Assembly (NCBI GenBank): GCA_009694965.1
Contig: SIBV01000003.1
Coordinates: 1-37,284, forward strand
DNA length: 37,284 nucleotides
Direction of reading: 5' to 3'
Source: Candidatus Zambryskiibacteriota bacterium
GTDB lineage: Bacteria; Patescibacteriota; Minisyncoccia; Phycocordibacterales; DATDWN01
Shown here: one piece after another, positions 10,106 to 33,063 of the stretch
Layout: the number at the start of each line of letters is the position of its first letter
Numbering within the stretch: position 1 is the stretch's first letter
Notes under the pieces: generated by a model
Database searches by the model: none
Told to the model about the DNA's origin: nothing
Seen by the model: the letters and a program-made list of their open reading frames with translations, nothing else
Position numbers and translations under genes: made by a program

Positions 10106-10112
10106 GTGAAAA

Positions 10113-10220: not shown

Positions 10221-10239
10221 ACCTCCATTATACCACCCC

Positions 10240-10677
10240 TTAATTAAGTATCTCTATCTCTCGAGAATTAGGGTTTTCTAGGGGGTTTAGACTAATTTTG
10301 ATATGTTCTGGCATGATATCTGCCACATTTTCTGGCCATTCAATCAATATTAGATTTTTTGGATCAGAGATGATTTCTTTCCAACCTAAATGCAATAATT
10401 CCTCGGCTTTTTCCAACCGGTATGCATCTATATGTATAAGATGTGTAAATTTCTGATTTTTAAGTACGTATATTTTTTCTATCACAAATGTCGGACTGGT
10501 GATCGAATCCGGAACTCCCAAACTACTCGCGACGCATTTCGTAAAAGCAGTTTTGCCAGCTCCCAAGTTTCCATACAAACCTACCACCACTGCACTATCG
10601 TTTTTTGGAGAAAGATTTACAACAAAACCATCTGCAATTTTTTGAGTATCTTCAAGTGAACTAGACGTGTGTTTCAT
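10240..10677 (-). CDS. tsaE: tRNA threonylcarbamoyladenosine biosynthesis ATPase
   Basis: GNLGAGKT, ITSPTF, HIDAYRL, LIEWPE. Confidence 0.96.
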   Translation of the reverse strand: MKHTSSSLEDTQKIADGFVVNLSPKNDSAVVVGLYGNLGAGKTAFTKCVASSLGVPDSITSPTFVIEKIYVLKNQKFTHLIHIDAYRLEKAEELLHLGWKEIISDPKNLILIEWPENVADIMPEHIKISLNPLENPNSREIEILN

Positions 10678-15115: not shown

Positions 15116-15199
15116 TTTTTTACTGGTCATACGACCACTGCTCGGCTGCGCACGGTTGTTTACAAACTTTATAGACTTTTAACTTTATAACTACTCAAT

Positions 15200-15732: not shown

Positions 15733-16383
15733 ATGAATGAAAAAATTAAAAAACAACTTTACAAAATAGCAGAAGAAAGACAAACGAAAAATGATCCTTT
15801 GCATGATTTTCAGCATATTTTAAGAGTTACAAACCTTGCTGTTAAAATCGGTAAAAGCGCAAAAGCTGATTTAGAAATTATTATCCCAGCTGCACTTTTT
15901 CACGACACTGTTGTTTATCGAAAGGATGACACGAAAAGTAAGTATGAGACTGATGAAAGTGCGGAAATGGCTGAACAAATTTTAAAAAAAATAAAAGGTT
16001 ATCCAAGGGGAAAAATTGATAAAGTAAAAACATGCATATTAGAGTGCTCCTTCACAAAAGGAATAATGCCTAAGTTATTAGAGTCTAAGGTGCTACAGGA
16101 CGCAGATAGACTTGAATCTACTGGAACGATTGCCATTATGAGAGGATGCTCTTCGAGTGGACTAATGAATCGTCAGCTGTATGATCCTAAAGATCCATTT
16201 TGTAAAAATGGCTTAGAGGGAGACCATTCGAGTGTGTGGCTTTTTTATAAGCGTTATTTAATGATAGAAAAAACTATCCATACAGCATTTGCTAAAAAAA
16301 TTGCCAAAAGAAGAACTAAATTTCTGCGAGATTTTCTAAGGGAATTAAAATTGGAGTTAGTAGAATCAGATATCAAAGTATGA
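15733..16383 (+). CDS. HD-domain phosphohydrolase (YedJ-like)
   Basis: HDFQHILRV, AALFHD, LQDADRLE. Confidence 0.88.
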   Translation: MNEKIKKQLYKIAEERQTKNDPLHDFQHILRVTNLAVKIGKSAKADLEIIIPAALFHDTVVYRKDDTKSKYETDESAEMAEQILKKIKGYPRGKIDKVKTCILECSFTKGIMPKLLESKVLQDADRLESTGTIAIMRGCSSSGLMNRQLYDPKDPFCKNGLEGDHSSVWLFYKRYLMIEKTIHTAFAKKIAKRRTKFLRDFLRELKLELVESDIKV

Positions 16384-17032: not shown

Positions 17033-17152
17033 TAAAATCTCGTTGAGTCATAATGTTTTTGGATTGTTCGCAGGTCGACGGACCGAGATTACAGAAATCG
17101 CACCAGCGATTTACGGGCTGTCCAAAAACATTATGAGGAGAAAGGGATTTTA
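17033..17152. repeat. Long nested hairpin at the lepA stop
   Basis: TCATAATGTTTTTGGA/TCCAAAAACATTATGA 16-bp stem; same CGTTGA/GAGAAAG internal loop as 7625-7758. Confidence 0.75.
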
Positions 17153-19027
17153 ATTTCTCAGCATTTTCAAAAACACGTCCTGTGGAATGTCGACAGTCCC
17201 TCGGCCTCTTGCCTTCATCCTCTTCTTTCCCTTCTTTTGCTTTTCACGAAGTTTCATTTTTCGAGTGATGTCCCCTCCATACATATGCTGAGTCACATCT
17301 TTACTGAAAGCTGAAACTGTGCGACTGGAAATAATTCTACCCAACGCTTTTGCCTGAACCTTCATCACAAACATTTGGCGAGGAAGGAGCGCATGAAGTT
17401 TCTCAACCATCATTTCCGCTTCTGTTTCGACAATCCTTCTAGATACAACTCTAGAGAACGCGGGCAATACCTCATCAGCAACTAGAATATCCATTCTCAC
17501 AACATTAGCATCTCGCATTCCTTCTATCTCATAAGAAATAGAAGCGAAACCACTCGATGCACTTTTCAATTTATCAAAAAAGTTTCGCATAAGTTCACGA
17601 AGTGGCATTTTCAAAAATAGTCTCGTTCTATCATCTCCAAAGTTTTCTGAGTCCCCTAGTTCTGCCTCATGTTCATAAAGAAGTGGCATTAAATTAACTA
17701 GAAACTTTACTGGCGTAATAATAATACAGTTTACCCACGGCTCTCGTATTTCCGAAAGTAATCCTTCATCAGGAAAATGTGCAGGCGAATATATAGTCTC
17801 CATTTGTCCCGCCTTTGGTCCGCTTTTATAAACTACTTCATAAGTAATAGTCGGCATAGTCACCACTAGATCTAGATTGAATTCTCGATGAAGTCTTTCT
17901 GAAATAATTTCTAAGTGAAGCATCCCTAGGAACCCGCAACGAAACCCTCTTCCCAAAACTCCTGATGATTCTTCTTCATATGTATAAGAAGAATCAGACA
18001 ATTTCAGCTTTCCTAAGGCCTGCTTAAGACTCACAAAATCATCCTGACTCTCTGGGTAGATTGACGCCCACACGACAGGACGAGGAAGCATATAACCCTC
18101 AAGCGGCACACTGTTGTCACCAACAGTACCAACAGTGTCTCCAACAGAGGCGATGCCTGGCTCCTTTATTCCTGTTACAATATAACCAATTTCTCCCGCA
18201 CTGAGAGTTTCCACTGGAACTTCGCCTGGCGAGAATATGCCTACTTCGATTGAGTTAAATGTTTCTTTTGCAATTTTGAAAACAAGCGGAGTATTTCGAG
18301 AAACTTTTCCTTCCATCACGCGCACGAAAACAATAACTCCTCTGTGAGTAGAATATTTGAAATCAAAAATTAGAGACTTGAAGCTGTTGCCTTCTACCAT
18401 CCTTGGAGCGGGAACTTTCTTGATAACTTCACGAAGTAAATCATCAACACCTTCACCAGTTTTTCCTGATGTGTATAAAATATCTTCTGGACTACATTCA
18501 AGTAATTTAATCACTTCCATTTTTACCTCCTCTACTCGAGCTAAAGGAGAATCCACTTTCGATAAAACTGGAATGATGGTGAGTCCTGCTTCCCTCGCCA
18601 TTCCAAGGGTAGTCAACGTTTGAGCCTGAACACCTTGGGTTGAATCAACCAAAAGAATCGAGCCTTCTACCGCTTTTAAGGCTCGAGAAACTTCATATGA
18701 AAAATCTATATGCCCCGGTGTATCTATCAAATTCAGAATGTATTCTGAATTTGAATTTTCAATTTTTAATTTAGAATTTTCATTGGAAACTGAATCATTG
18801 ATTGGAAATTGAGAATTGGAAATTGGAAATTTTGGTCGATAGACCATCCTCACAGGTTGCATCTTGATAGTAATCCCTCTCTCTCGTTCAAGTTCCATTG
18901 AGTCAAGGACCTGTTCCTGCATTTTCCGTTTTTCTATAGTGCCGGTTAGCTCAAGCATTCTGTCAGCTAAAGTAGATTTACCATGGTCTATGTGGGCGAT
19001 GATACTAAAGTTTCGAATGTTTTCCAT
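17150..19027 (-). CDS. lepA: Elongation factor 4 with a repeat-derived in-frame insertion
   Basis: IRNFSIIAHIDHGKSTLADR, ERERGITIK, DTPGH, GFRCGFLGMLH, YGGDITRK. Confidence 0.98.
   Translation of the reverse strand: MENIRNFSIIAHIDHGKSTLADRMLELTGTIEKRKMQEQVLDSMELERERGITIKMQPVRMVYRPKFPISNSQFPINDSVSNENSKLKIENSNSEYILNLIDTPGHIDFSYEVSRALKAVEGSILLVDSTQGVQAQTLTTLGMAREAGLTIIPVLSKVDSPLARVEEVKMEVIKLLECSPEDILYTSGKTGEGVDDLLREVIKKVPAPRMVEGNSFKSLIFDFKYSTHRGVIVFVRVMEGKVSRNTPLVFKIAKETFNSIEVGIFSPGEVPVETLSAGEIGYIVTGIKEPGIASVGDTVGTVGDNSVPLEGYMLPRPVVWASIYPESQDDFVSLKQALGKLKLSDSSYTYEEESSGVLGRGFRCGFLGMLHLEIISERLHREFNLDLVVTMPTITYEVVYKSGPKAGQMETIYSPAHFPDEGLLSEIREPWVNCIIITPVKFLVNLMPLLYEHEAELGDSENFGDDRTRLFLKMPLRELMRNFFDKLKSASSGFASISYEIEGMRDANVVRMDILVADEVLPAFSRVVSRRIVETEAEMMVEKLHALLPRQMFVMKVQAKALGRIISSRTVSAFSKDVTQHMYGGDITRKMKLREKQKKGKKRMKARGRGTVDIPQDVFLKMLRN
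18747..18833. repeat. Heptamer inverted-array element in frame within lepA
   Basis: Coding strand about four AATTTCC units, then about four GAAAATT units; encodes KFPISNSQFPINDSVSNENSKLKIENSNS between GTPase motifs G2 and G3. Confidence 0.88.
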
Positions 19028-19088
19028 GAGCCTTATTAAAGCACAAAAAGGGTTAATTCCAAATAAAAATTAATCGGTGTCACCTTAG

Positions 19089-19209
19089 AAACTTTCACAA
19101 TCTGGATGAAGTTCAAGGCGGAATGAAAAAATGTGAGGAGTCTTACTCGTTGTAAGATGACGAGAATTTTTTATATTCCAACGCAGAAATTCGCCAGATT
19201 TGGAAGTTT
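19089..19209. repeat. Long multi-bulge hairpin element (CAAGGCG...CAACG.AG family), copy 2
   Basis: AAACTTTCA..AAGTTCAAGGCG..GAGTCTTAC/GTAAGATGA..CAACGCAGAAATT..TGGAAGTTT. Confidence 0.8.
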
Positions 19210-20888
19210 TATGTTAACTCGGCGTCTGGGACGACTATTTTGGCCCGCCATATCTTCTTCCTGAAAGTATCAACTGCTTCAGATAACTCCTTACTTCCCA
19301 ATGTATACAGAACAACAATTCCCACTATAATTCCTGCTATACCAGCCAAAAATCCTTGGAGGAATATACCGTACAAAGTGTTTATATCGAAAACTTTATC
19401 TAGAACTGCTAAGCCTTGGTAGGTTACAAAACCCATTATGATAGAAGCTGAAAAAACTTCAAAGAGGGTTCTCCAAACTGCTGGCGAGAATGCTTTGTAT
19501 TCCCTACTGAAACCTATCCAATGAATGATAAGGTTTACAACAACTCCTATTGAGAATCCAAAAGGAAGCATCAAAATTGTTGTGCCGGGCAAGTCAGATA
19601 CTTTCAAGATTGACTCCATAAAATGACGGAAAAATATATTGTCATCAAAGAGTCTGGCCAGTCCAAAACTTCCTACAACAATAAGAACGGCTGACAATAC
19701 GTTTATAACAAGTGGCGTCCAAGTCTTTCCTTGGGAATAGTAAGCTCTGACAAAAAGTGCTACGAGGTTTTGTGCGACTAGCGAAACCACAAACAAGGCG
19801 AGTGCCGCCGCCGTGAGTCTCGTATCTTCCCAATTAAACTTTCCAGCTCCAAGGATTGTTCTCACTATCTGCGCGCGCAATACTATGAAAAGTATAGTGA
19901 CAGGCACGGACCAAAATATTATATGTCGAGCAGAGATTATCATTTGCTCTAAAAACTTATCTTTCTCCCCTGCTGAAAAAAGACGAGTAAGGGATGGAAA
20001 AGCAGCTAGAGAATAACTCACACCAATAATACTGAAAGGGACTGATTGAAGATTCAAAGCAAAACTAAATACGGAAATTGACCCTGGCACAAGAAAAGAA
20101 GCAAAAGAAATCAAAAACAGTTTTGCAATTTCATTAGCAGAAACTGTTATGGTGCGAGGAAGAGATATGAGGATTATGGTTTTTATTGAACCCCATTTTA
20201 TTGGAAACGTAAATCTTGGTAGCATTCTTTGAGAAGCAATAAACGGAACTTGTATCCCAAGATGCAAAAGCGCTCCTAACGCTACTCCAAACCCAAGTCC
20301 CGGCAAACCCATCTTTGGATATAAAAATACAATACCTGTAATGATTCCTATGTTATAAACAACTGGAGAAATCGCGTAGACCAGAAATCTTCTGTGTATT
20401 TGAGTTATACTCGCCAGCAAATTAGAGAGACCTAAGAATATTGGTGAGAGAAGCAGTATTCTGGAAAGGATTACAAGTTCAGGAAATCTTGAAGAATCAG
20501 CAAAGGCAGGAAACAAAACTTTCATTAGATATGGAGTAGCAAAAAATGCAACTAACCCCACAAAGATCATCAAGCAAAAGAAAAAAGTGAAAACTGTATT
20601 TATGAAATCCTTAGCCGCCTCTTCACTCTTCTCAAACCTTTCGATGAGAAACGGAATCAGAACTGAAATCGAAATAATAGACGCGACCGACACAAAAAGA
20701 ATGTCAGGTATTCTGAAAGCTGAATAATATAAATCTAGTGTGCTACCTGCCCCGAACTGTCCAGCCAGGATTCTGTCTCTAAACAGTGCCAAGATCTGTG
20801 AACATATAGCAAAGAAGCCTAAAAGATAAGCGGCCTGATGAAGGCCGGATATCTCAATGTTTAGTATGTTCAGAAATCTTTTTACCAT
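19209..20888 (-). CDS. murJ: Lipid II flippase MurJ (MviN)
   Basis: RDRILA..FGAG..LD.YYSAFRIPD, P.VYNIGII, AAFP.L, RAYYS. Confidence 0.92.
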   Translation of the reverse strand: MVKRFLNILNIEISGLHQAAYLLGFFAICSQILALFRDRILAGQFGAGSTLDLYYSAFRIPDILFVSVASIISISVLIPFLIERFEKSEEAAKDFINTVFTFFFCLMIFVGLVAFFATPYLMKVLFPAFADSSRFPELVILSRILLLSPIFLGLSNLLASITQIHRRFLVYAISPVVYNIGIITGIVFLYPKMGLPGLGFGVALGALLHLGIQVPFIASQRMLPRFTFPIKWGSIKTIILISLPRTITVSANEIAKLFLISFASFLVPGSISVFSFALNLQSVPFSIIGVSYSLAAFPSLTRLFSAGEKDKFLEQMIISARHIIFWSVPVTILFIVLRAQIVRTILGAGKFNWEDTRLTAAALALFVVSLVAQNLVALFVRAYYSQGKTWTPLVINVLSAVLIVVGSFGLARLFDDNIFFRHFMESILKVSDLPGTTILMLPFGFSIGVVVNLIIHWIGFSREYKAFSPAVWRTLFEVFSASIIMGFVTYQGLAVLDKVFDINTLYGIFLQGFLAGIAGIIVGIVVLYTLGSKELSEAVDTFRKKIWRAKIVVPDAELT

Positions 20889-20894
20889 TGTTTA

Positions 20895-23282
20895 TTATCT
20901 TGTTTCTTTAACGGGAAGCCTCTTGCCCTTCTCTGGCTTTGTCTCCTCAGCATTCACAAGTGCTGACTTGCCTGCTCTTAAATTTTCTAGAATCTGTTTT
21001 ACTTCTGCGCTATCAGGGTTCGTTACTAAGAGTCTTTCGAACTCGGTAATAGCTTGGGTTTTTTTACCTACTGCGTCGTATGACAATCCTAGAAAATACT
21101 TTGCGTTGGCATAGTCAGGAGTCATACCTGTTGCCTTTTCAAGCGCCACAATCGCTCCATTGTAGTCTTTTATGTTGTATTTCAAAAGTCCTAGCTGGAA
21201 AAATATGCCCGGATCAGTAGGGTCAATAACAGATGCTGCAGTTACAGAATCAATTGCGCCCTTTATATTATTATCAGCTACTTCTATTTGTGACAAGAGG
21301 AAATATGCGTCAAGATAATTCTTTTTTAGTTGGATAGCTTGAAAAGCATAATTGCGAGCCGCCTTTAGATCCTTTCTAGCAACTGCAAGTCTTGAGAACA
21401 GAATGTATATTGCAGGATTTTTTGGATTTCTTTTCAAAGCTTCTGCATAGGCAAACTGTGCACTTTCATAAGCGCCCTCCACTTTCAGTTCAGTTGCTGA
21501 AACTGATTCGTAAACTCGCCCCAATGCAATCCAATTTAAATAGTTTGAATCATCTGCATCTTTAGCAGCAATCCCCGCCTTTATTGCAGTAGTTAGGGTG
21601 TCACTAAATTGTTTTTGAATTTCCTCTTGCTTAACCGTTTTCGGGTCGGTAGCCAGCAATTGGTTTAATTTAATAACTTCGATTTCTGATAACGCTCTAT
21701 AATAAATATCAGCAGGAACTGTGTCAATTGCTTTTATAATTTGCTCTTCAGACTTAGCTATATCTTTCAAACTATTTATTGCGTAAGCACTTTTCTGAAA
21801 ATAAAAGAGGGATTTTGAATTCTTAAACAAGCCGTAGCCTAAGGATAAACTGACTCCAAACAAAGCCACGAGAACAAATGAAAACACAAAGCCCTTGCGT
21901 GGATTATTTGCGAAAACTCTAGTTTCAAGAGGAACAAGTCCCGATAGGTAAATGGATGCAAAAAATAAACCAGTAAAAAACAGAGTGATTATAAACACCA
22001 CCGTACTTGGAATATACACAAAAGTCATTATCCATAAATACAATGACGCAAAGAATGAAGATGTTAGTAGATACTTCATAAACTTATCATCAGTTCTGGC
22101 AAAAATAGACTTAACTCCAAGATACAGATAAAAACCTAGAAACAAGAGCCAAGAAAGAATCCCAAGAAGCCCCGTCGTAACTGCAAAAGTTGGTATGAGA
22201 CCTATTCCGTTTGTGAAGTCAGTATTCCAAAAAATAGTGGAAACTACATCATCAGGCTTCCATGTCAACCATTGAGCAGTGAAAGTATTCGGACCTGATC
22301 CAAATAGCGGACGATCGTTTATGGTGTTTTTTGCGATATCGAGAGTAACTGCCAAGGTCGGACGAACCTCTACATTTGAAATATTGAAGTATTGCGATAG
22401 TGATGCTCCCAAGGTGCTTCCCCAAACCACAAAAGATGCAGAGATAATCAACACAATAAGTGCGTAAATTGGTGTATTTACCAATCTATTTTTCAACGTC
22501 ACAACTCCCTTATGGTCTGGCTCCGTGCTATATATACTGTAGAGAATGAAAAGGAAAGAACAAATAGCCAGTATCATCCAAATCAAACTGAAATTCACAA
22601 GCACTAGGAAGAAAAGTGAAAGAACCAGCGCAGTAGACAATATTAATTTCATAAACTTACTAACTCTTATCATTTCGTAAGTAAGTAGTGAAAGGATGAC
22701 TCCTACCCCAAAGAAAATGCCGACATTGTTCCAACTGCCCACCATAGTGTTTGTTACATTTGTAAACAATCCAAAAGATAACAGGTCACTTCCCCAGATA
22801 ATACGAATGAGTAAGAAAACTGAAAGTATTATTGATGATATAACAAAGGCAAAATAAGAATAAAACACGTGTTGTTTATTGCTAAACAGCACAGAAACAA
22901 GAAATAAATAAGCAAATCCAAGAACCATAAATCCAACGGTGGATATATCAAAAGTGTAACCAAAGAAAGATAGTCTAGAAAATCCATTGGCTACGCCCGC
23001 CAATGTATAAACTACGGGAACTAGAATCAAGGATCCCAAAATATACTTATTTTGGTGCGGAATCTCTATTGAACCCGAGAAAAGTGATGAAACAATATAG
23101 AGAAGCAAAGCCAGGATTACTCCAAATGCAAAAAGGAGACTTGTCCCAAACTGAGTAGAAATAAACTCCACTGGAACAAAAAATATTGGGGTAAGGAAAG
23201 TAACTACTAGTAGTAACCAGAAGGAAATGTTCTTTAGTAACCCTGAGTGAGTCACGTCTTTTATTGTATTATTTTCGTGCAT
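20895..23282 (-). CDS. Multi-TM O-antigen ligase/polymerase-like protein with C-terminal TPR repeats
   Basis: More than 12 hydrophobic helices, RPLFGSGPNTF periplasmic-loop motif, TPR motifs (A..NP, YANAKYFLG). Confidence 0.75.
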   Translation of the reverse strand: MHENNTIKDVTHSGLLKNISFWLLLVVTFLTPIFFVPVEFISTQFGTSLLFAFGVILALLLYIVSSLFSGSIEIPHQNKYILGSLILVPVVYTLAGVANGFSRLSFFGYTFDISTVGFMVLGFAYLFLVSVLFSNKQHVFYSYFAFVISSIILSVFLLIRIIWGSDLLSFGLFTNVTNTMVGSWNNVGIFFGVGVILSLLTYEMIRVSKFMKLILSTALVLSLFFLVLVNFSLIWMILAICSFLFILYSIYSTEPDHKGVVTLKNRLVNTPIYALIVLIISASFVVWGSTLGASLSQYFNISNVEVRPTLAVTLDIAKNTINDRPLFGSGPNTFTAQWLTWKPDDVVSTIFWNTDFTNGIGLIPTFAVTTGLLGILSWLLFLGFYLYLGVKSIFARTDDKFMKYLLTSSFFASLYLWIMTFVYIPSTVVFIITLFFTGLFFASIYLSGLVPLETRVFANNPRKGFVFSFVLVALFGVSLSLGYGLFKNSKSLFYFQKSAYAINSLKDIAKSEEQIIKAIDTVPADIYYRALSEIEVIKLNQLLATDPKTVKQEEIQKQFSDTLTTAIKAGIAAKDADDSNYLNWIALGRVYESVSATELKVEGAYESAQFAYAEALKRNPKNPAIYILFSRLAVARKDLKAARNYAFQAIQLKKNYLDAYFLLSQIEVADNNIKGAIDSVTAASVIDPTDPGIFFQLGLLKYNIKDYNGAIVALEKATGMTPDYANAKYFLGLSYDAVGKKTQAITEFERLLVTNPDSAEVKQILENLRAGKSALVNAEETKPEKGKRLPVKETR

Positions 23283-23369
23283 TGTTTTTAAATTATTTAG
23301 TTTTATATCCTTATATTATATAGTTATTATCTTACTGATTCAATGTTGACCCCGTTAGAGTTTTACAAT

Positions 23370-23397
23370 TTGAAATAATTTATTTTTATGGTATAAT
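23370..23397 (+). promoter_or_regulatory. Sigma70-like promoter of rnpB
   Basis: TTGAAA-16 nt-TATAAT with extended TG, immediately before helix P1. Confidence 0.6.
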
Positions 23398-23401
23398 AGA
23401 A

Positions 23402-23897
23402 TTGTTATGTTGGATAAGTGCTCTTTAGCTATTTATAGCTAAAGGGAGGAAAGTCCGAACATCAAGTTTAGATTTATCTAAACAAGAGTAGCGGGTAACG
23501 CCCGTCGGGAGTAATCCTAGAGGTGCGAGCAGTGACGTCCGAGGCGAAAGCCAGAGAATTCCGCTGCGTTAAAGCAGATGGAATAATTTTATGGAAACAT
23601 AAAAGTGAAACGGCAAAATCCTTACTTTGATGCAAGGCCGTACCCGACTGCACCTCACTGGGTTCAGTGCAGAATTTTCAATTTTCAATTTCTAATTTTC
23701 AAACAATTCTCAATGTATCAAAGGGGAATTAATTCATTGAAAACTGAAAATTAGAAATTAGAAATTCTGTCCGAGCAAAGCGAGGTGCAGTTGGGGGTGC
23801 CGCTTGATCACCGTGGTAACACGAGCGACAGATAAATACTTATCGTCGAGCACCAGTTCTGGTGCTCGATACAGAATTCGGCTTATAGACACAACAA
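23402..23897 (+). ncRNA. rnpB: RNase P RNA with an expanded helix distal to P15
   Basis: GAGGAAAGTCCG and ACAGAATTCGGCTTA P4 halves, GTGAAACGGC and GCAAG conserved regions, complementary ends forming P1. Confidence 0.93.
23669..23770. repeat. Heptamer inverted-array element inside RNase P RNA
   Basis: GCAGAATTTTCAATTTTCAATTTCTAATTTTCAA ... TTGAAAACTGAAAATTAGAAATTAGAAATTCTGT nested in the CCCGACTGCACCTC/GAGGTGCAGTTGGG stem. Confidence 0.88.
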
Positions 23898-23901
23898 AAA
23901 T

Positions 23902-23937
23902 GAAAAATCACATCCTAACCGATGTGATTTTTCTTTT
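23902..23937 (+). terminator. Terminator of rnpB
   Basis: GAAAAATCACATC-CTAACC-GATGTGATTTTTC followed by TTTT. Confidence 0.8.
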
Positions 23938-23988
23938 ATACATCCACATTCACACATCCACATTCACGGCCCTCGTTACATACCCAAG

Positions 23989-24011
23989 TTTACGAGGGGC
24001 ACCTTCGTAAA
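23989..24011. repeat. REP-like hairpin downstream of the half-RAYT gene
   Basis: TTTACGAGGG-GCA-CCTTCGTAAA, 13 nt after the stop of the 24025 ORF. Confidence 0.55.
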
Positions 24012-24024
24012 TGTCCTACCTAAG

Positions 24025-24657
24025 TTAATCAAAAACTAGGTCCTTTAACTCAGCCTTGTCTTTCAAAATCTCATAACTTGATTTGGTGAAATCTTTAAAC
24101 TCAGCAATGTCTTTAAATTGACTGAGTATGATTTCATTATCACATATATTATTAGAATTAATCCCAATGAATTCCGGGTAACTACTCCATTTGTAATTTT
24201 CTATATTTTTCACAATTCCTCCTATTTTAGGATTTTGGTGAAGATAACAAGTTAACCAATTTAAATACTCATTATCCCCTATCGTTATCTGCTTGAATTG
24301 ATCTTGAAATATATGACCGACCTTATCATACTTTCTATTAAAATATTTTGAATGTATTGAAAACAAAGGATTTCTCGGTTGATGGGAATCCTTTGTTTTC
24401 AATACATTCAAAATCTCGGCTGGACGAGATGTTGTTGTTTCATAATGATTTTGAGTTTCCTGTGCTTTTTCATCTGGAGTAGTTCTGTATGACAAAACTG
24501 ATTCCTCTAAAACAAACCAGGAACGATCAATCCTTCTTGATGTAATTTTATCTTGTCTGCAAAGCTGTCCAATGTAGTCTCTAGAGTAGCCGGTAATTCT
24601 ACTGGCCTCTTTTATTGAAATATATTTCTTCCCTTCAAAGTAAGCGTCAGAATTCAT
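24025..24657 (-). CDS. Chimeric protein: excisionase/MerR-like HTH fused to the C-terminal half of a RAYT/Y1 transposase
   Basis: YISIKEASRITGYSRDYIGQLCR..SWFV then KYFNRKY..VGHIFQDQFK..YLHQNP..YKWSSY; no HUH motif; ATG 24657 has TATAAT 7 nt upstream. Confidence 0.7.
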   Translation of the reverse strand: MNSDAYFEGKKYISIKEASRITGYSRDYIGQLCRQDKITSRRIDRSWFVLEESVLSYRTTPDEKAQETQNHYETTTSRPAEILNVLKTKDSHQPRNPLFSIHSKYFNRKYDKVGHIFQDQFKQITIGDNEYLNWLTCYLHQNPKIGGIVKNIENYKWSSYPEFIGINSNNICDNEIILSQFKDIAEFKDFTKSSYEILKDKAELKDLVFD

Positions 24658-24679
24658 TAGTAAAATTATAGCGTTCAAA

Positions 24680-24710
24680 TGTGGATAAATTGTGAATAAT
24701 ATGGGGATAA
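24680..24710. promoter_or_regulatory. Three co-oriented DnaA-box-like 9-mers at 11-bp period
   Basis: TGTGGATAA 24680, TGTGAATAA 24691, TGGGGATAA 24702; also TTATCAACA at 24878. Confidence 0.65.
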
Positions 24711-24960
24711 CAAAAGATATTTCAGAAGAGTTCACCCTTCTGAAATATCAATTTAGAATTTTTAAATTGGATACAAATTATATATAGGATTTGATACAGA
24801 GCCTATAAATTTTCTCTTTACTAATAGTATGTCTTGTCTATAACTTTTTCTAAATTTTAAAGTTTAAATTCTGAAAGTTATCAACAGGTAACATTGTTAA
24901 TCTAATATAAACTTTGTATTATTAAGTCATAGCTTTATCAATCTTTATTAATGTACTACT

Positions 24961-25203
24961 ATTGCAAATCAATATATAACAATAAAACAAGCTTCCAAGA
25001 TTCTTGGTGTAGCTCCACTAACTCTTCGTAATTGGGACAATAGCGGAAAGCTAAAGGCTCATAGGCATCCTATGAACAACTACAGAGTTTACAAAATTGA
25101 AGATCTAGAAAAGGTAATTATGGAAATTGAGACCAACACTGGACTAAGAAAAAGTAGTAAAAAAGATGTTAGGAAGCTCATCGTGAAGCATCTAGAAGAG
25201 TAA
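24961..25203 (+). CDS. MerR-family/excisionase-like HTH protein, missing from the ORF track (ATT at the start position)
   Basis: (I/M)ANQYITIKQASKILGVAPLTLRNWDNSGKLKAHRHPMNNYRVYKIEDL..., 80 codons; in-frame TAA at 24949; TAATGT 6 nt before ATT. Confidence 0.75.
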   Translation: MANQYITIKQASKILGVAPLTLRNWDNSGKLKAHRHPMNNYRVYKIEDLEKVIMEIETNTGLRKSSKKDVRKLIVKHLEE

Positions 25204-25210
25204 CAACATA

Positions 25211-25248
25211 AAACAGCTCTGACAAATGTCAAGGGCTGTTTATTTTAT
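25211..25248 (+). terminator. Terminator after the MerR-like gene
   Basis: AAACAGCTCT-GACA-AA-TGTC-A-AGGGCTGTTT followed by T-rich sequence. Confidence 0.6.
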
Positions 25249-25281
25249 TAACCAACCCTCATCTCTCTACCCTTCTTACAT

Positions 25282-25306
25282 TATGGCAAGGTTAAACCTT
25301 GCCATA
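25282..25306. repeat. REP-like palindrome, left of RAYT
   Basis: TATGGCAAGGTT-A-AACCTTGCCATA. Confidence 0.85.
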
Positions 25307-25333
25307 TGAAGAAAGAAAAACTATAATATACAG

Positions 25334-26011
25334 ATGACACGTTCAACCACAATCTCAATTGATGAATTTTATCACGTTTATAATAGGGGTACTGAGAAAA
25401 GAAAAATATTTAACACACGGTATGATTACGAACGTTTTATAGCTCTTCTCTATCTGTGCAACTCTACTGAACCAATACGCATAAGAAGTAAGTACTTAAA
25501 TGAAATGCTTGATACTAAGCGCGGTAAAAAACTAGTAGACATTGGTGCGTACTGTCTCATGCCAAATCACTTTCATCTTTTGTTATACGAATGTGTTGAG
25601 GATGGCACCAGTCTGTTTATGCAGAAACTAACAACAGCCTACACGATGTATTTCAATAAGAAAAACGATAGGGTTGGAAGTTTGTTTCAAGGTACATTCA
25701 AAGCTGAGCATCTAGACGATGATGAATATTTAAAATATATTTTTGCATACATTCACTTGAATCCTGTTAAACTTATTGAACCTAAATGGAGGGAGGATGG
25801 GATCAAAAACCGCACTGGAGCAAAAAACTTTTTGAAAAATTATTCATATTCAAGTTACTCAGAATTTACCGGAGTCGACAGAAAAGAAAAAGTCATCCTC
25901 TCCCCTACTGCCTTTCCAAAGTATTTTGAAAAGGTGGATGACTTTCAAAAAATGATTAACTTCTGGATCGAGTTCAAGAATGAATACCTTCTGCCAGAGA
26001 AAGAAATCTAA
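25334..26011 (+). CDS. REP-associated tyrosine transposase-like HUH endonuclease (Y1/IS200 superfamily)
   Basis: YHVYNRG, AYCLMPNHFHLL (HUH), YTMYFNKK..RVGSLFQG.FK, YIHLNP (catalytic Tyr), YSYSSY. Confidence 0.9.
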   Translation: MTRSTTISIDEFYHVYNRGTEKRKIFNTRYDYERFIALLYLCNSTEPIRIRSKYLNEMLDTKRGKKLVDIGAYCLMPNHFHLLLYECVEDGTSLFMQKLTTAYTMYFNKKNDRVGSLFQGTFKAEHLDDDEYLKYIFAYIHLNPVKLIEPKWREDGIKNRTGAKNFLKNYSYSSYSEFTGVDRKEKVILSPTAFPKYFEKVDDFQKMINFWIEFKNEYLLPEKEI

Positions 26012-26019
26012 AAACTAGA

Positions 26020-26048
26020 AGTATGGCGAGGTTTAACCTCGCCATACT
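26020..26048. repeat. REP-like palindrome, right of RAYT, inverted relative to the left copy
   Basis: AGTATGGCGAGGTT-T-AACCTCGCCATACT; A-T to G-C compensatory change versus the left copy. Confidence 0.85.
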
Positions 26049-26114
26049 ATGAGGGAGAAGGTGTTTTGGTAGACCAATTATTTGGACCAATTATTTTTTT
26101 ATTTTACAGACCGA

Positions 26115-27665
26115 CTATTTTAATAACTCAAGAGTAATTTTTCGGATCAGTTCTGGATTGCCAGCGCCTTTCATCGCCTTCATACCATGGCCTACAAAAA
26201 AATGAAGGAGTGATTCTTTGCCGGCTTTGTAGCCCGCAACACTCTCGGGGTTAGTGGTGATTATTTCTTGCATAACTGCTCTAAGCTCTTCTGAATCATT
26301 TTTCTGAATCAATCCTTTCTCTTTTGCAATCACTTCTGGACTTCCGCCGACTACATACATTATTTTTAAAACATCCTTTGCTCCACGTGATGACAAGTCG
26401 CCACTTTTAATCATAATTATTAAACTTACAAAATTTTCAACTTCAATAAGTCCCAAAGAAAACTCATTTCCAGCAACTTTCGAAAGTCCGATAATATCTG
26501 ATGTAATGTAATTTGATGCAGACTGAACAATTTCTGAGCCTTGAGCTATTAATTGTTTGGAAACTGTTTCAAAGAAATTACACGCTTCCCTATTGTTTAT
26601 GTATGTCTCGATATCCGAACTCTTTAGACCAAAATCTTTTGAGAACCTTTCTCTCTTTTGTTGAGGTAGTTCTGGTATTGATTTTTTTATTGTTTCATAA
26701 TCAAATTCTGGAATTTCTGAAATAAATATCTTTGGTAAATCAGGTTCAGGGAAATATCTGTAGTCATGAGCGGACTCTTTTGCTCTTTGACTGAAAGTCA
26801 CACTTTTGTTTTCATCCCACCCGCGGGTTTCCTGGATCACCTTTTCTCCCTTTTCCAAAATTGATTTTTGTCTTTCGAATTCAAAATCAATAGCCTTTCC
26901 AGCAGCTCGGAAGGAGTTTATATTTTTTACCTCCACTTTCGTCCCTAATTGGTCATTGGACATTGGAACTTGGGATTTATTGACGCTTATATTCACCTCA
27001 ACTCTCATTTCCCCTTTTTCCATGTTGGCATCAGATACTCCTAAATATTGAAGAAGTAGTTGAAACTCTCTGGCAAAATTCATAGCATCAACACTTGAGT
27101 GAATTACAGGTTCTGTAACTAATTCCATCAAAGGCACCCCTGCTCTGTTATAGTCAACTAAAGAATTTTCAGTTCTCAATTTTGCAATTTTCATTGAATT
27201 TTCAATGTTTGAATTTTCATTGGAAATTGACTCATTGAGATTTGATTGGAAATTGGAAATTGGAAATTGTGAATTAGCCCCACTGTCATGTATCGATCTT
27301 GCAGTATCTTCTTCAAGATGGATGCGAGTTAAATCCACTCCGTCAATAGAGCCCCCAGAAACTAGAGGGTATTTATACTGACTTATCTGATACCCTTTTG
27401 GGATATCAGGATAGAAATAGTTCTTTCTATCGAACTCAGTAAAGTTGGCGAGCTTGCTCCCTACAGCCACCCCCACAGACAAAACCTTTTTAATGGCCTC
27501 CTTGTTTATAACAGGGAGCGTCCCAGGGTGACCCATACATATTGGACAGATATTTGCGTTTGGAGACTTTTCTTCTGGATCGTTTTTACATCCACAAAAC
27601 ATTTTACTCTTTGTTTTGAGTTCAGCGTGAATCTCGAGACCAACTGTTATCTTATAATCTGACAT
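26115..27665 (-). CDS. gatB: Asp/Glu-tRNA amidotransferase subunit B with two repeat-derived insertions
   Basis: VGLEIHAEL, FDRKNYFYPD, RIHLEED, DYNRAGVPLMELVTEP, VEVKN, DYRYFPEPDL. Confidence 0.97.
   Translation of the reverse strand: MSDYKITVGLEIHAELKTKSKMFCGCKNDPEEKSPNANICPICMGHPGTLPVINKEAIKKVLSVGVAVGSKLANFTEFDRKNYFYPDIPKGYQISQYKYPLVSGGSIDGVDLTRIHLEEDTARSIHDSGANSQFPISNFQSNLNESISNENSNIENSMKIAKLRTENSLVDYNRAGVPLMELVTEPVIHSSVDAMNFAREFQLLLQYLGVSDANMEKGEMRVEVNISVNKSQVPMSNDQLGTKVEVKNINSFRAAGKAIDFEFERQKSILEKGEKVIQETRGWDENKSVTFSQRAKESAHDYRYFPEPDLPKIFISEIPEFDYETIKKSIPELPQQKRERFSKDFGLKSSDIETYINNREACNFFETVSKQLIAQGSEIVQSASNYITSDIIGLSKVAGNEFSLGLIEVENFVSLIIMIKSGDLSSRGAKDVLKIMYVVGGSPEVIAKEKGLIQKNDSEELRAVMQEIITTNPESVAGYKAGKESLLHFFVGHGMKAMKGAGNPELIRKITLELLK
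26947..26978. repeat. Single arm of a related heptamer array in frame in gatB
   Basis: ATTGGTC ATTGGAC ATTGGAA CTTGGGA; encodes KSQVPMSNDQ between NISV and GTKVEVKN. Confidence 0.6.
27163..27275. repeat. Heptamer inverted-array element in frame within gatB
   Basis: Encodes NSQFPISNFQSNLNESISNENSNIENSMKIAKLRTENS between HLEED..H and LVDYNR; centre nearly identical to the lepA copy. Confidence 0.88.
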
Positions 27666-27677
27666 ATGTAGATAATT

Positions 27678-28643
27678 TTACAGTTTTTCTAAAATCTTTA
27701 CCAATGAATCGCTTAAATTCTTTACTGATGCATCATCGATAATAGATAGGGACAAAACGTTTTCGTGGGTTTTTTGGAATAGTTTAATGTGTGATTTTAG
27801 AGTCTTTTCGTCAATCAGATCAATTTTTGTTAGCAAGACAACTTCGGGTTTTTTCAAAAGTTCTTTATCATAAAGTGAAAGTTCCTTTCGGATAGTTTTG
27901 TAAACAGCCAAAGGTTTTTCATTTTCACTAGAAATACAGTGAAGAAGCATTTTGGTTCTAGCAATGTGTCGAAGAAACTTGTGCCCCAACCCCTTTCCCT
28001 CGTGAGCCCCTTCTATAAGTCCTGGTATATCTGCAATAACGAAACCATACAAATCTCCTAGGTTTGGTGAAAGTGTAGTGAATTGATAACTTCCAACTTT
28101 TGCTTTGGCCCGAGTCAAGGAATTCAGTAAACTTGATTTTCCGGCATTTGGTAGACCGACAAGTCCCAAGTCAACGACTAGTTTTAATTCAACAAAAAAC
28201 TCTCCGCCCTGTCCAAGCTTTCCTCTGGTAGACTCTTGAGGCTTAACGTTTGTTGGTCCTTTGAAGTGGTCGTTTCCATACCCTCCCCATCCACCCTTCA
28301 AAAAGAATATCGTCTCTTCATTCAAGATCTCAACTTCTTCAAGAGTTTCTGTATTTTTTACAACTGTGCCAATAGGCAACTCAATGGTTATATCTTTACC
28401 AGATCTTCCGTGCATACATTTACCTCTCCCTTTTTGACCATCTTCAGCTTTAAAATCTTTTATGAACTTATACTCGGCCAGTCTTCCAATATCGTGAACG
28501 CCTTTGAGATAGACACTTCCGCCCTTACCACCGTCTCCTCCCCCAGGACCTGCATGGTCAATACCCTTCTCATGCTTCCATGAAACTATGCCGTCCCCTC
28601 CGTTTCCAGCCCATATATTGAGTGTTAATTCATCTATAAACAT
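27678..28643 (-). CDS. obg: GTPase Obg/CgtA (no C-terminal domain)
   Basis: MFIDE..AGNGGDG Gly-rich Obg fold, GLPNAGKSS, FTTL.PNLG, DIPGLIEGA, TKID. Confidence 0.96.
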   Translation of the reverse strand: MFIDELTLNIWAGNGGDGIVSWKHEKGIDHAGPGGGDGGKGGSVYLKGVHDIGRLAEYKFIKDFKAEDGQKGRGKCMHGRSGKDITIELPIGTVVKNTETLEEVEILNEETIFFLKGGWGGYGNDHFKGPTNVKPQESTRGKLGQGGEFFVELKLVVDLGLVGLPNAGKSSLLNSLTRAKAKVGSYQFTTLSPNLGDLYGFVIADIPGLIEGAHEGKGLGHKFLRHIARTKMLLHCISSENEKPLAVYKTIRKELSLYDKELLKKPEVVLLTKIDLIDEKTLKSHIKLFQKTHENVLSLSIIDDASVKNLSDSLVKILEKL

Positions 28644-28661: not shown

Positions 28662-28749
28662 AATTTTCAATTTACAATTCTCAATTTTCAATGAATTTTC
28701 AATGAATTAAAGGGTTTTTTGGAAATTGTAAAATTGAAAATTGAAAATT
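28662..28749. repeat. Heptamer inverted-array element upstream of obg
   Basis: AATTTTCAATTTACAATTCTCAATTTTCAATG ... GGAAATTGTAAAATTGAAAATTGAAAATT. Confidence 0.85.
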
Positions 28750-28836
28750 TTTTTTTCAATTTTAGTGAAAAAATAGTTATCCCCAACATAGAAATTTGCA
28801 AAAAAATTACAATCTGGTACAAATATGGAAATTCCA

Positions 28837-28946
28837 ATACGAATATGCGAATGAAACGAATAATGCGAATGTATACGAATAAATACAATCCGTTTTCTAT
28901 CATTCGTAGCCATTCGTAGCTTGGTATTATTCGTTAATTCGTATAT
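28837..28946. repeat. (TACGAAT)n...(ATTCGTA)n hairpin, copy 2
   Basis: Five CGAAT units then about five ATTCGT units. Confidence 0.8.
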
Positions 28947-30445: not shown

Positions 30446-32626
30446 ATGAAAAGAGCTCTTTTATTTTTTAAAAAGAAATTAGGCAAGCACGGTATTAGAA
30501 ATATAGCTGTCTTTTTACTAGCGTGTTTTATGGTCTTGGCTAGTATAATGCTTATTTGGGTATCCACCTTCAAAATCCCCTCACTAGACGCGGTAAGGGA
30601 CCGAAAAATCAGCCAATCCACAAAAATTTACGACAATACGGGTAAAATCCTCTTATATGATGTTTTCCAAAAAACAAAAAGGACTGTCGTCCCTTTTGAA
30701 GAAATTTCTCTTTATATAAAAGATGCTACCTTATCTATTGAGGATAAGGAATTCTATACACATAGAGGTTTCAAACCACTTTCTGTTTTGAGAGCGGTTA
30801 TTGTGAACATTTTGTCTTTAAGCTACAGCCAAGGGGGGTCAACTATAACTCAACAGGTTGTAAAAAACTCTATTCTTACAGGTGACAAAACTCCAACTAG
30901 AAAACTGAAGGAGTTGGTGATTTCCTTAAAACTAGAAACGGCAATTTCTAAACAGGAAATATTTAGCATGTATTTAAACGAGATACCTTATGGTGGAAGC
31001 ATTTATGGAGTAGAGGAAGCTAGCCAAACTTTTTTTGGCAAAAAGGCAAGCGAAGTTACAATATCTGAGGCGGCATACCTTGCCTCTCTTCCTCAAGCTC
31101 CTACCTATTTTTCCCCATACGGAAAAAACAAAGTAAAACTAGATGAAAGAAAAAATGTGGTGCTAAGAGAAATGCGAAGGGATGGAAAAATAACTGAAGA
31201 AGAATATACGAAAGCTCTAGCTGAAAAAGTTGAATTTATTCAAAAATCTATTTTTGGAATCAAAGCTCCACACTTTGTGATGTTTGTGAAAGATTATTTG
31301 GAAAAGAAATACGGGAAAGATGTTTTGGAACAAGGTGGTCTCAAAATAATAACAACCTTAAATTATGAACTGCAATCAAAAGCCGAGGCTACTGCAAAGA
31401 AATTTGCCGATATAAATCAAAAGAGTTTTAACGGGTCAAACGACGCTTTTATCGCCATAGATCCGAAGACTGGAGGGATACTAACTATGGTGGGATCTAG
31501 GGACTATTTTGATAAGGAAATTGATGGAAACTTCAATGTTACGACCGCACACAGACAACCTGGGTCGACTTTCAAACCTTTTGCTTACGCTCAAGCTTTC
31601 GTAAAAGGCTACACACCTGAAACTATTGTGTTTGATCTTCCTACCCAGTTCTCAACAAACTGCCCTATAGACGACTTTACAACAACGACAGATGGAAAAT
31701 GTTATGGCCCTGGAAACTATGACGACAAGTTTAGAGGCCCTATGACGCTGCGTGAGGCACTAGCTCAATCTATAAACGTTCCTTCAGTAAAAGTTCTATA
31801 TCTAGCCGGCATTTCTGATTCAATAGACCTTGCGAAGAATATGGGAATAGGTAACCTTCAGAACTCCAACACTTATGGACTTACTCTAGTTTTGGGAGGT
31901 GGTGAAGTTTCACTTCTAGATATGGTTTCGGCTTATGGGGTTTTTGCTACGGAAGGCGTTAGAAATCCATATGTGAGCATACTCAAGGTGGAGGACAAGA
32001 ACGGGAATGTTTTAGAAGAGATTAAACTTCGACCAACACAAGTCTTGGACGCTGAAGTATCTCGAAAAATATCTGATATTCTAAACGATAACATTGCCAG
32101 AACACCACTTTATGGAGCAAACTCTAGAATTTATTTCCCTGGACGAGATGTTGCTGTGAAAACGGGAACTACCAACAACTATAGGGATGCTTGGATTGTG
32201 GGCTACACCCCTAGTGTGGTTGTTGGTACTTGGGCCGGAAACAACGACAACACTCCGATGGCAAAAAAGGTTTCTGGCCTGATAGTTGCTCCTATGTGGA
32301 GAGAGTTTATGGATGAAGTACTAAAAACTGTTCCAGATGAGTCCTTCAATGAACCAGTCTTGGATGATGCTTATGAATTAAAGCCTGTGCTTCGAGGAAA
32401 ATGGCAAGGAGGTGTATCAAACCTAAACCAAAACATTTTAAATGAAAGCGGAGTGCCTTATAGCTCTCTACAAGAGGTATTGTCTGGAGGTGTCCATAGT
32501 ATTCTATATTGGTTAGACAAAGACAATCCGCGTGGAGCACCGCCAACAAACCCTTCTTCAGATCCTCAGTTTGAAAGGTGGGAATACTCCATTCGTAAGT
32601 GGGCAACAACCCAGGGTTACGAATAA
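30446..32626 (+). CDS. Class A penicillin-binding protein (transglycosylase plus transpeptidase)
   Basis: EDKEFY.H.G, QGGSTITQQ, RKLKE, STFK (SxxK), SIN (SxN), KTGT. Confidence 0.95.
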   Translation: MKRALLFFKKKLGKHGIRNIAVFLLACFMVLASIMLIWVSTFKIPSLDAVRDRKISQSTKIYDNTGKILLYDVFQKTKRTVVPFEEISLYIKDATLSIEDKEFYTHRGFKPLSVLRAVIVNILSLSYSQGGSTITQQVVKNSILTGDKTPTRKLKELVISLKLETAISKQEIFSMYLNEIPYGGSIYGVEEASQTFFGKKASEVTISEAAYLASLPQAPTYFSPYGKNKVKLDERKNVVLREMRRDGKITEEEYTKALAEKVEFIQKSIFGIKAPHFVMFVKDYLEKKYGKDVLEQGGLKIITTLNYELQSKAEATAKKFADINQKSFNGSNDAFIAIDPKTGGILTMVGSRDYFDKEIDGNFNVTTAHRQPGSTFKPFAYAQAFVKGYTPETIVFDLPTQFSTNCPIDDFTTTTDGKCYGPGNYDDKFRGPMTLREALAQSINVPSVKVLYLAGISDSIDLAKNMGIGNLQNSNTYGLTLVLGGGEVSLLDMVSAYGVFATEGVRNPYVSILKVEDKNGNVLEEIKLRPTQVLDAEVSRKISDILNDNIARTPLYGANSRIYFPGRDVAVKTGTTNNYRDAWIVGYTPSVVVGTWAGNNDNTPMAKKVSGLIVAPMWREFMDEVLKTVPDESFNEPVLDDAYELKPVLRGKWQGGVSNLNQNILNESGVPYSSLQEVLSGGVHSILYWLDKDNPRGAPPTNPSSDPQFERWEYSIRKWATTQGYE

Positions 32627-32690
32627 TTTTCAATTTTTAAACAGATTCAAATGCTTTAGTTTAGAAATTAGAAATTGAAAATTAGAAATT
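32625..32690. repeat. Short heptamer inverted-array element between convergent stops
   Basis: AATTTTCAATTTTTAA ... TTAGAAATTAGAAATTGAAAATTAGAAATT. Confidence 0.7.
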
Positions 32691-32692
32691 GT

Positions 32693-32947
32693 TTATCTAA
32701 TATCTACTATCTTAAGTCCTGTTAACTGTGTTATTTCCTCTATAATTCTTGTTTTAAATATAAATAGCTTATTTTTTACTCCAGATGAAGCCTTCACCAA
32801 CAAAACACAATCCTTTAACTCAACATCCTCCGGACTTATTTTGATTCCTGTATTTTTATCTATGATTTCTAAAATCTGTCTTCGGTGTAAATCTATAGAA
32901 TTGAGTTTTTTAGTAAACCTTTCTAGATATTTTTGAATATTAAACAT
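32693..32947 (-). CDS. Putative DciA (DUF721)-like replicative helicase loader
   Basis: Downstream of dnaN; LKDCVLLVKASS..KNKL..K.RIIEEI...G.KIVDIR resembles the DciA KH-like fold pattern. Confidence 0.5.
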   Translation of the reverse strand: MFNIQKYLERFTKKLNSIDLHRRQILEIIDKNTGIKISPEDVELKDCVLLVKASSGVKNKLFIFKTRIIEEITQLTGLKIVDIR

Positions 32948-32958: not shown

Positions 32959-33063
32959 ATACTAATTAACGAATAGAGAAATAATATGAATGACTACGAA
33001 TTAGAGAATTAAAAATTTTATTCGTTGCCATTCGTATATTTGTATTGTTCGCATATTCGTATA
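32959..33063. repeat. (TACGAAT)n...(ATTCGTA)n hairpin, copy 3
   Basis: Degenerate ACGAAT units then ATTCGT units, between dnaN and the DciA-like gene. Confidence 0.75.

Follow-up and report, generated by a model that had tools for sequence, protein, structure and literature searches.

The 37,284-nucleotide stretch of DNA analyzed here (the window) is a contig from a genome of Candidatus Zambryskiibacteriota, in the Patescibacteria (candidate phyla radiation, CPR). It contains six copies of a short palindromic element built from arrays of heptamers, among them copies within the protein genes lepA and gatB and within rnpB, the gene for RNase P RNA. We conclude that the six copies are probably the gene-less form of a hairpin element resembling the intervening sequences of 23S rRNA genes; the full form carries a gene of family PF05635 in its apical loop, and there is a sister class with a GxxExxY nuclease gene. 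The elements suggest a little-known class of selfish DNA.

The source genome, G000, amounts to 527 kb in 29 contigs, is 87% complete and has a G+C content of ~38%; the window is its contig C21. The genomes of its relatives, which were searched at one genome per species, measure 0.4-0.9 Mb. Relatives are denoted by G numbers, contigs by C numbers and individual loci by L numbers. Gene names rest on Pfam or NCBIfam matches, both for the window (LepA, GatB, PolA, TsaE, Obg and a PBP1A-family protein) and for TsaD, RecJ, LeuRS and TrmD elsewhere in G000, while rnpB was named by Rfam.

The six copies and their homology

Every copy has the layout (AATTTYC)n, spacer, (GRAAATT)n, as read directly from the sequence, and Tandem Repeats Finder reports period-7 arrays at each of them; all six are present where the initial annotation had placed them. 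The element measures ~65-130 bp in this family, each arm consisting of an AATTTYC heptamer array together with an 11-base sub-repeat. A full-length intergenic copy (10112-10223, plus strand) lies between tsaE (10240-10677, minus strand) and polA (7751-10105, minus strand), and its arms are asymmetric, with the 11-base sub-repeat AATTTTCAATG. Two copies are in frame in protein genes. The one in lepA (gene 17150-19027, minus strand, Pfam) occupies 18747-18838 on the minus strand, with an insert core of 18752-18835, and encodes LepA residues 65-92 (KFPISNSQFPINDSVSNENSKLKIENSN); the one in gatB (gene 26115-27665, minus strand, Pfam) occupies 27162-27281 on the minus strand, the insert corresponding to approximately residues 130-163 (27177-27278). 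The rnpB gene specifies a bacterial type A RNase P RNA (23402-23901, plus strand; Rfam RF00010, 105.4 bits, gathering score 100) and contains a copy at 23669-23770 (plus strand), at the tip of the P15-P17 arm. The Rfam alignment leaves 120 bases (23662-23782) unaligned between model positions 251 and 252; this site is the apical hairpin of the arm, and the insert itself folds as a hairpin. Another intergenic copy (28662-28752, plus strand) is situated upstream of obg (27678-28643, minus strand) and gatB, and G005 has a similar array ~1 kb upstream of its own gatB. The last copy (32625-32693, plus strand) is short and degenerate, begins at the stop codon of the PBP1A-family gene (30446-32626, plus strand) and is the weakest member.

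Homology was assessed by local alignment, with 500 shuffles that keep 7-base blocks as the control for pairwise scores. The common centre that had been proposed for the lepA and gatB copies is upheld by a score of 32, equalled by 1 of the 500 shuffles, and the proposed likeness of a gatB arm to the copy in the polA leader (10112) by a score of 39, equalled by none. The scores of 8 of the 15 pairs were reached by at most one shuffle; those of pairs including the 32625 copy did not rise above the control. The longest exact common word was also tried as a measure and rejected, most pairs not being separable from block shuffles, and local alignment was used instead.

A DNA profile was seeded with five intergenic copies (from C21, C6, C15 and C13), the lepA, gatB and rnpB copies being excluded. 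Besides its seed at 10112-10223 (E 9.6e-24), this intergenic-only profile recovers at nearly full length the copies in gatB (profile positions 1-115, E 3.4e-19), rnpB (E 2.6e-13) and lepA (positions 7-113, E 1.7e-7); it misses the 32625 copy. A scan of G000 with such a profile, which the initial annotation had proposed, gives 15 distinct places at E<0.01, including further full-length copies on C8 and C1, and an order-3 Markov version of the genome gives none. The claim that the copies exceed shuffled low-complexity controls thus holds for 8 of the 15 pairs and for the profile, and fails for the 32625 copy. A looser scan, for AATT at period 7, yields 29 loci in G000, of which 22 are intergenic, 6 lie in long open reading frames (ORFs), namely lepA, gatB, leuS, tsaD, trmD and recJ, and 1 lies in rnpB. 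Judged from their sequences, the six copies are one dispersed, homologous family.

It might be supposed that nothing moves, and that the elements grew on the spot, slippage making the heptamers and strand-switching during replication the palindromes, in loops that tolerate them. Such growth would explain why the unit number of the arrays varies, why, from species to species, one and the same loop may contain unrelated inserts, and why the junction palindromes described below are built from local flank, as template switching gives; the available text of one study also describes an excess of heptamer repeats in bacteria and proposes slippage as its origin (PMC4692102). It would not readily produce an ordered, non-periodic sequence shared over ~110 bases, including the asymmetric arms and the 11-base sub-repeat, nor the same order in G036 and G005, nor gene-bearing copies that carry both halves of the same profile, and the profile has no match in the randomized genome. 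We consider growth on the spot quite improbable. The non-periodic parts common to the copies, and the recurrence of the asymmetric arms in those two genomes, bear out the original argument for copying over independent slippage.

Occupied and empty sites

Alignment with relatives reveals empty alleles for lepA, gatB and rnpB, the comparison on which the first proposal of an insertion was to be judged. In LepA, 14 of 20 extracted alleles have a short loop, a 7-8-residue turn (e.g., KYLHEGKSY), compared with 28 extra residues in G000, and LepA matches in most of 30 other genomes are split at residues ~64 and ~93. The GatB insert, of 34-36 residues, is missing from all 27 aligned relatives. The positions fit loops, as had been predicted: solved LepA and GatB structures have 1-3 residues there, with one residue in Thermus EF4 and three in Thermotoga GatB. 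The P15-P17 tip of rnpB was compared in 14 congeners: it is a minimal hairpin in 8 and a slightly longer hairpin in 4, and G011 and G005 carry other sequence there, of ~95-135 bases, which in G005 is another array palindrome (AAGTT units). Across the order, rnpB varies in length from 311 to 509 bases, and the genes of G018 (L073) and G011 (L075) have other large inserts in other helices.

The same sites are occupied by different inserts in different genomes. At the LepA turn, G008, G021 and G026 have unrelated inserts, G018 has a 12-residue remnant, and G036 has an AATTTCC element whose left arm is as in G000. In G005 the turn holds a 170-residue insert with a complete GxxExxY/PDDEXK_3 domain (profile positions 1-117 of 117) between inverted arrays made up of CGCAGAC-like units. 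Likewise, an AATTTTC element occupies the nusG-rplK spacer of G000 (C15:4627-4743), and in G005 and G018 (L081 and L078) that spacer contains a GxxExxY gene whose arms are of the ACGAAT type. By these comparisons the insertion sites are hot spots.

The TsaD insert is found only in G000, G005 and G010, of 23 genomes aligned. A species tree (FastTree, four proteins, 23 genomes, no support values) groups G000 with G004 and G010, and G005 with G007, and the filled lepA and tsaD alleles do not form one clade; genomes with fewer than three of the four proteins, among them G006, G016, G017 and G018, were left out of the tree, and the scatter of filled alleles on it is a hint only. In G015, TsaD (L213, C11) has a different insert of ~35 residues in the same loop, in a match that contains one TAA.

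Contigs of four DNA runs were compared for support of the assembly. The lepA insert is bridged by X3 (0 other letters), X4 (0) and X5 (1), and the gatB insert by X3, X4 and X5 contigs; the rnpB element is bridged by none of the contigs listed, which stop inside the element. This support is only weakly independent, because the window may itself derive from X3 and X4, and X4 and X5 belong to one study. In G010 the LepA sequence is divided between two contigs (C9:7809-8003 and C20:20878-22056) exactly at the insertion site, as a repeat would cause.

Reading frames of the inserts

The lepA copy is open in 1 of 6 frames, that of the gene, and the gatB copy in 2 of 6, one of which is the gene's, whereas all 24 frames of the four non-coding window copies are closed. 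A pure GAAAATT array has TGA in every frame, and the in-gene copies use GGAAATT or broken arrays. This pattern fits a filter for translatable variants and is no evidence on the function of the peptides.

The frames also bear on whether the inserts are removed from RNA in the manner of 23S rRNA intervening sequences, in which case the extra peptides would be missing from LepA and GatB, and RNase P RNA would be trimmed or in pieces. The long copies described below do carry the protein family of 23S rRNA intervening sequences, the available part of one paper describes such sequences within 23S rRNA genes (PMC10053308), and a hairpin would bring the two ends together. Removal would not, however, require that the lepA and gatB copies be open in the host frame and the non-coding copies closed, nor that all 47 in-frame inserts of the GxxExxY class (below) be open through both arms into the host frame, as they are, and cutting without rejoining would destroy the mRNA. 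Removal at the RNA level therefore seems very unlikely.

Gene-bearing copies in congeners

The reading of the window copies as gene-less forms comes from longer copies in related genomes. In G036:C3, profile halves 5-62 and 59-115 flank an ORF of 120 residues that matches PF05635 at 60.5 bits (cut-off 33.8) and TIGR02436 (four helix bundle protein) at 79.8 bits. G035:C30 has the same build, with a PF05635/TIGR02436 gene between the profile halves. The initial annotation had called the element non-autonomous and had pointed to genes between the arms of longer copies as the place to look; these two congeners support the reading as non-autonomous, holding copies in which the two halves of the profile lie on either side of such a gene. 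Among PF05635 genes in four congeners, 10 of 11 have flanking inverted arrays that outscore every one of 200 shuffles and one is borderline, the arm scores of repeat arrays being based on simple shuffles. The array units vary by locus and include GAATAAT, AAGTTAT, AAGGTNA, AATTTYC and others. The long copies contain no transposase, the PF05635 gene being the only one present.

The available part of PMC10053308 describes PF05635 as the protein of 23S rRNA intervening sequences, similar to Avd of diversity-generating retroelements. Because the gene-bearing copies of the congeners have the same arms, the window copies would be gene-less forms of an intervening-sequence-like element.

Distribution among relatives

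To gauge distribution, 63 family genomes were scanned for three heptamers with up to two mismatches, the reversed pattern serving as the control. The pattern is present in 26 of them, with 122 matches in G036, 65 in G035, 57 in G053, 40 in G000, 39 in G005 and 30 in G010, and with 0 in many congeners. The control gave 0-3 matches, except in G015, which has 38 per strand. G036 contains dozens of canonical elements of 110-130 bp, with asymmetric arms as in window copy 10112-10223; G005 also has such arms. A candidate for a long copy in G036 (C10:94925-95718) was rejected, being two separate elements, one on each side of frr. A cluster of ribosomal-protein genes in G000 has single AATTTYC arms immediately upstream of start codons (C9:7214, 10123 and 11430).

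It is conceivable that the elements serve the host as terminators, RNA-stabilizing hairpins or protein-binding arrays, that they are inherited vertically and lost in some lineages, and that the in-gene copies are rare accidents. The predominance of intergenic loci in G000 (22 of the 29 AATT-array loci) agrees with this, and many loci lie in short operon spacers, such as nusG-rplK, those of ribosomal protein genes and those that flank frr on either side in G036. In G000 and G005 the positions are conserved, and the heptamer arrays of Xanthomonas are likewise found at conserved places, according to the available text of PMC4692102. A host function is harder to reconcile with the patchy occurrence among congeners (0 to 122 matches), with copies inside six protein genes and rnpB, with different element types in one spacer, and with cargo genes typical of selfish intervening sequences. 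Host-serving modules are, on balance, unlikely.

A sister class with a GxxExxY nuclease

A second gene is associated with the same architecture. PF13366 (PDDEXK_3, GxxExxY) occurs in 13 of the 63 family genomes, and 9 of 15 testable loci in the family have inverted arms that score above all shuffles, the free-standing ones being of the ACGAAT type. A scan of one genome per species with an in-frame clade returned 80 GxxExxY loci, 47 of them in frame in ORFs of >250 residues and 33 free-standing. The hosts of the 47 are LepA (23), RecG (16), LeuRS (3), SecA, GatB, a GTPase with EF-Tu-type domains and YdjC (1 each), with 1 unplaced. In-frame loci are spread across the Patescibacteria (L094-L156; G005:C13, G039:C1 and G015:C21), and the free-standing loci include records from Bacteroidota, Omnitrophota, Planctomycetales, Verrucomicrobiota and Bosea. 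Of 79 testable loci, 53 have inverted arms at z>=4; among shifted placements, the control, 4 in 144 do.

All 14 copies that were aligned retain the active-site pattern D...(E/D)xK, and nuclease activity is thus possible. In the in-frame inserts Pfam finds PDDEXK_3 only, with no protein-splicing domain, and there is no Rfam intron in 20 free-standing loci. A location inside rRNA genes was considered for these 20 and rejected, only a tRNA and a Flavo-1 RNA being nearby. GatB of G005 has arms without a nuclease at the loop where GatB of G039 holds one, so that gene-less derivatives exist in the GxxExxY class too.

Two LeuRS proteins have additional segments. That of L099 has a serine-hydrolase domain besides the nuclease, and that of G000 (C4:5031-8063, L188) is matched by NCBIfam in three stretches, with a long extra segment that is Nudix-like by eye.

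Junction palindromes and a possible route of insertion

The junctions of the in-frame nuclease inserts were scanned in fixed windows adjoining the nuclease domain, N being treated as unable to pair, with 2760 windows in the same ORFs as the control. Perfect hairpins of at least 10 bp are present on 10 of 47 5′ sides and 17 of 47 3′ sides, compared with 2.8% of control windows. Perfect hairpins of 10-18 bp bracket the inserts at, for example, L097, L098, L101-L105, L111 and L156. In each junction stem, one half consists of host codons (e.g., LepA ILNLID) and the other half is their inverted copy, with loops mostly of 2-5 bases; the stems vary between lineages at synonymous sites yet remain perfect.

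The lepA copy of the window has junctions of this kind. At its gene-sense 3′ end is a palindrome (18727-18754, minus strand) with a 13-bp perfect stem and a 2-base loop, in which one half holds the host ILNLI codons and the other half the inverted copy; among 3000 random 68-base windows taken from the genome, 0.4% have stems of at least 12 bp. The gene-sense 5′ end has a small hairpin (18833-18846, minus strand; 5-bp stem, 4-base loop), alone not significant, and longer hairpins stand at this place in G005, G018, G021 and G036. Among other AATTTYC copies of G000, the tsaD junction has a stem of 14 bp (C2 ~16330-16365), that of leuS a stem of 8 bp, and that of recJ is imperfect. At the rnpB junction the target is itself a hairpin, and the duplication and inverted-copy readings are indistinguishable there. 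A direct target duplication hidden in the palindromes was considered and rejected; the lepA insert of G005 permits it, and L102 and others do not.

Inverted flank copies with small loops fit fold-back self-priming at a break, rather than staggered-cut transposition. In such a scheme, the DNA would be broken, both 3′ ends would fold back and copy their own flank, and the element would then be joined in; a nuclease such as GxxExxY would make the break in trans. GxxExxY is the only nuclease linked to this architecture, though not to AATTTYC arms. Elements copied into new sites would persist only at places able to accommodate a long hairpin or a floppy loop, that is, at RNA helix tips, at protein hairpin turns and in intergenic spacers, and copies in genes would be translated as low-complexity loops. 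The combination of a fold-back insertion step and a break made in trans is possible, and we regard it with some doubt. If it is true, insertion would leave a signature unlike the direct target duplications of known transposons.

With similar reserve, if slightly more readily, we put forward a broader proposal, namely that all of these elements may belong to one undescribed superfamily of selfish hairpin elements. It would be defined by inverted arms of 7-12-base repeats and by a cargo consisting of an Avd-like four-helix-bundle protein, a GxxExxY nuclease or nothing. Its members would occupy RNA helix tips and in-frame loops (LepA, RecG, LeuRS, SecA, GatB and TsaD) across the Patescibacteria, with free-standing relatives in other phyla, and would insert by fold-back of both break ends, with each host flank copied in inverted orientation.

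Several observations weigh against the interpretation of the window copies as gene-less members of a mobile, intervening-sequence-like family. Neither a transposition event nor a polymorphic site nor an excised form was observed, and in the contigs of other runs the insert is always in place, with no empty allele. The conserved placement at the obg/gatB leader in G000 and G005, together with the TsaD insert in three genomes, indicates that part of the pattern is due to vertical descent. G000 has no PF05635 match (in a genome that is 87% complete), and PF05635 does not correspond to any enzyme known to us. In G036, 13 copies have A/T-rich flanks that often end in TAA and show no clear direct target duplication; palindromes are also lacking at the gatB and trmD junctions. 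As for the sister class, none of the GxxExxY loci has AATTTYC arms, the sole GxxExxY gene of G000 has ACGAAT arms instead, and arms are wanting (z<2) at 9 of 47 in-frame and 3 of 32 free-standing loci. Finally, the copies fold into hairpins with only a modest gain over shuffles (z of -0.7 to -2.8), the gatB copy giving -0.7. Folding energy was rejected as a test of the element; hairpin energy is uninformative here because shuffled A/T-rich sequence folds nearly as well.

Relation to known elements

The closest analogy considered among in-frame elements is with the Rickettsia palindromic elements (RPE). In R. felis, 728 RPE copies are reported in the available text of PMC1166351, 85 of them inside ORFs and 3 in RNA genes. 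RPE and the present elements alike are small palindromic repeats in coding and non-coding regions, are inserted in frame and are tolerated in essential genes; in G000, too, a dispersed palindrome of ~100-150 bp is found in ORFs, RNA genes and spacers (lepA, gatB, leuS, tsaD, trmD, recJ and rnpB). The elements differ in belonging to another lineage, in having arms that are arrays of 7-base and 11-base units, and in the gene-bearing copies and inverted flank copies seen here. Because the lineage and the repeat-unit build differ, we treat the element as an analogue of RPE and not as a member, the likeness being judged by description.

The intervening sequences of 23S rRNA are cut out by RNase III. 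They share with the present elements the form of a stem-loop at the helix tip of a structural RNA and, in long copies, a PF05635/TIGR02436 gene. They differ in location, since this family is found in rnpB, protein genes and spacers and not in the 23S contig of G000: the element profile has no match on C5, which holds a truncated 23S gene. We know of no 23S intervening sequences with arms of short tandem repeats or with in-frame copies in proteins. The elements are accordingly not filed as members of either the RPE or the 23S intervening-sequence family, and the likeness to both probably amounts to a tolerated hairpin. The truncated 23S gene (C5:1-2663, L283) does have an insert of ~310 bases (~1725-2033, Rfam model position 583), which is bounded by a 13-bp inverted repeat and is not array-built.

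Heptamer arrays themselves have precedents. Vioque is said to have described, in 1997, short tandemly repeated repetitive (STRR) heptamers in rnpB of heterocyst-forming cyanobacteria, reportedly located in helix P12. Both cases involve tandem heptamers inside rnpB; the phylum and units are different, and here the arrays lie at the P15-P17 tip and are part of a defined element that also enters proteins. The GGGAATC heptamer arrays of Xanthomonas often form inverted pairs able to give stem-loops and are 89-93% intergenic (PMC4692102, available text). They are G-rich and were studied as quadruplex formers, and the same portion of that paper reports no cargo gene and no in-frame copies in protein or RNA genes (PMC4692102).

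The GxxExxY class recalls homing endonucleases and inteins, in that essential genes of distant hosts have a nuclease gene at one and the same conserved site (LepA 23, RecG 16). Homing enzymes of the PD-(D/E)XK type exist, for example I-Ssp6803I. The GxxExxY inserts differ in having no splicing domain or intron and in being read through in frame, and cleavage by them is a prediction from sequence.

Like bacterial MITEs (miniature transposable elements with inverted repeats), the elements are short, non-coding and dispersed and have inverted ends, the inverted arms constituting terminal inverted repeats. Unlike MITEs, the long form here has no transposase, and the G036 copies show no clear target duplication. 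Some MITEs add peptides to proteins, according to the available parts of three papers (PMC3184786, PMC5896051 and PMC10969869).

No description of these elements was found in the main texts of the literature searched (supplements may hold more), and a paper on CPR rRNA insertions has no mention there of inverted repeat, palindrom-, tandem repeat or RNase P. The elements may connect the heptamers of cyanobacterial rnpB, the Xanthomonas arrays, rRNA intervening sequences and the in-frame palindromes of Rickettsia. PF05635 and GxxExxY are both widespread and of unknown function, and finding both at the tip of array-armed hairpins provides a handle on both families. The inverted flank copies would be the trace of an unusual route of repair or insertion, one that can be tested. 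It also appears that small genomes (0.5-0.9 Mb) tolerate, and perhaps cannot purge, selfish DNA in their most conserved genes. There are practical consequences as well: such inserts break assemblies, as in the split lepA of G010 and in contigs that end in elements, and they lower family scores, with rnpB barely passing and RecG below cut-offs.

Other repeats in the window

A second and more abundant palindromic family has ACGAATN/NATTCGT arms. It is represented in the window at 2911-3007, 28840-28942, 32997-33060 and 35822-35908 and by 50 arm clusters in G000, and its arms flank the GxxExxY (PF13366) gene of G000 (C28:17870-18300) and those of several congeners. A third family, with AAAGTTN/AACTTTN arms, is found at 36061-36147 and 15165-15192; the insert in rnpB of G005 and the arms around a PF05635 gene (G005:C14) are built of similar units. 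Lastly, a stretch of the spacer between lepA and the next gene (19089-19190) contains no Rfam family at the gathering score; many divergent contigs and a high summed depth in four metagenome runs suggest that it is a repeated or widely conserved sequence.

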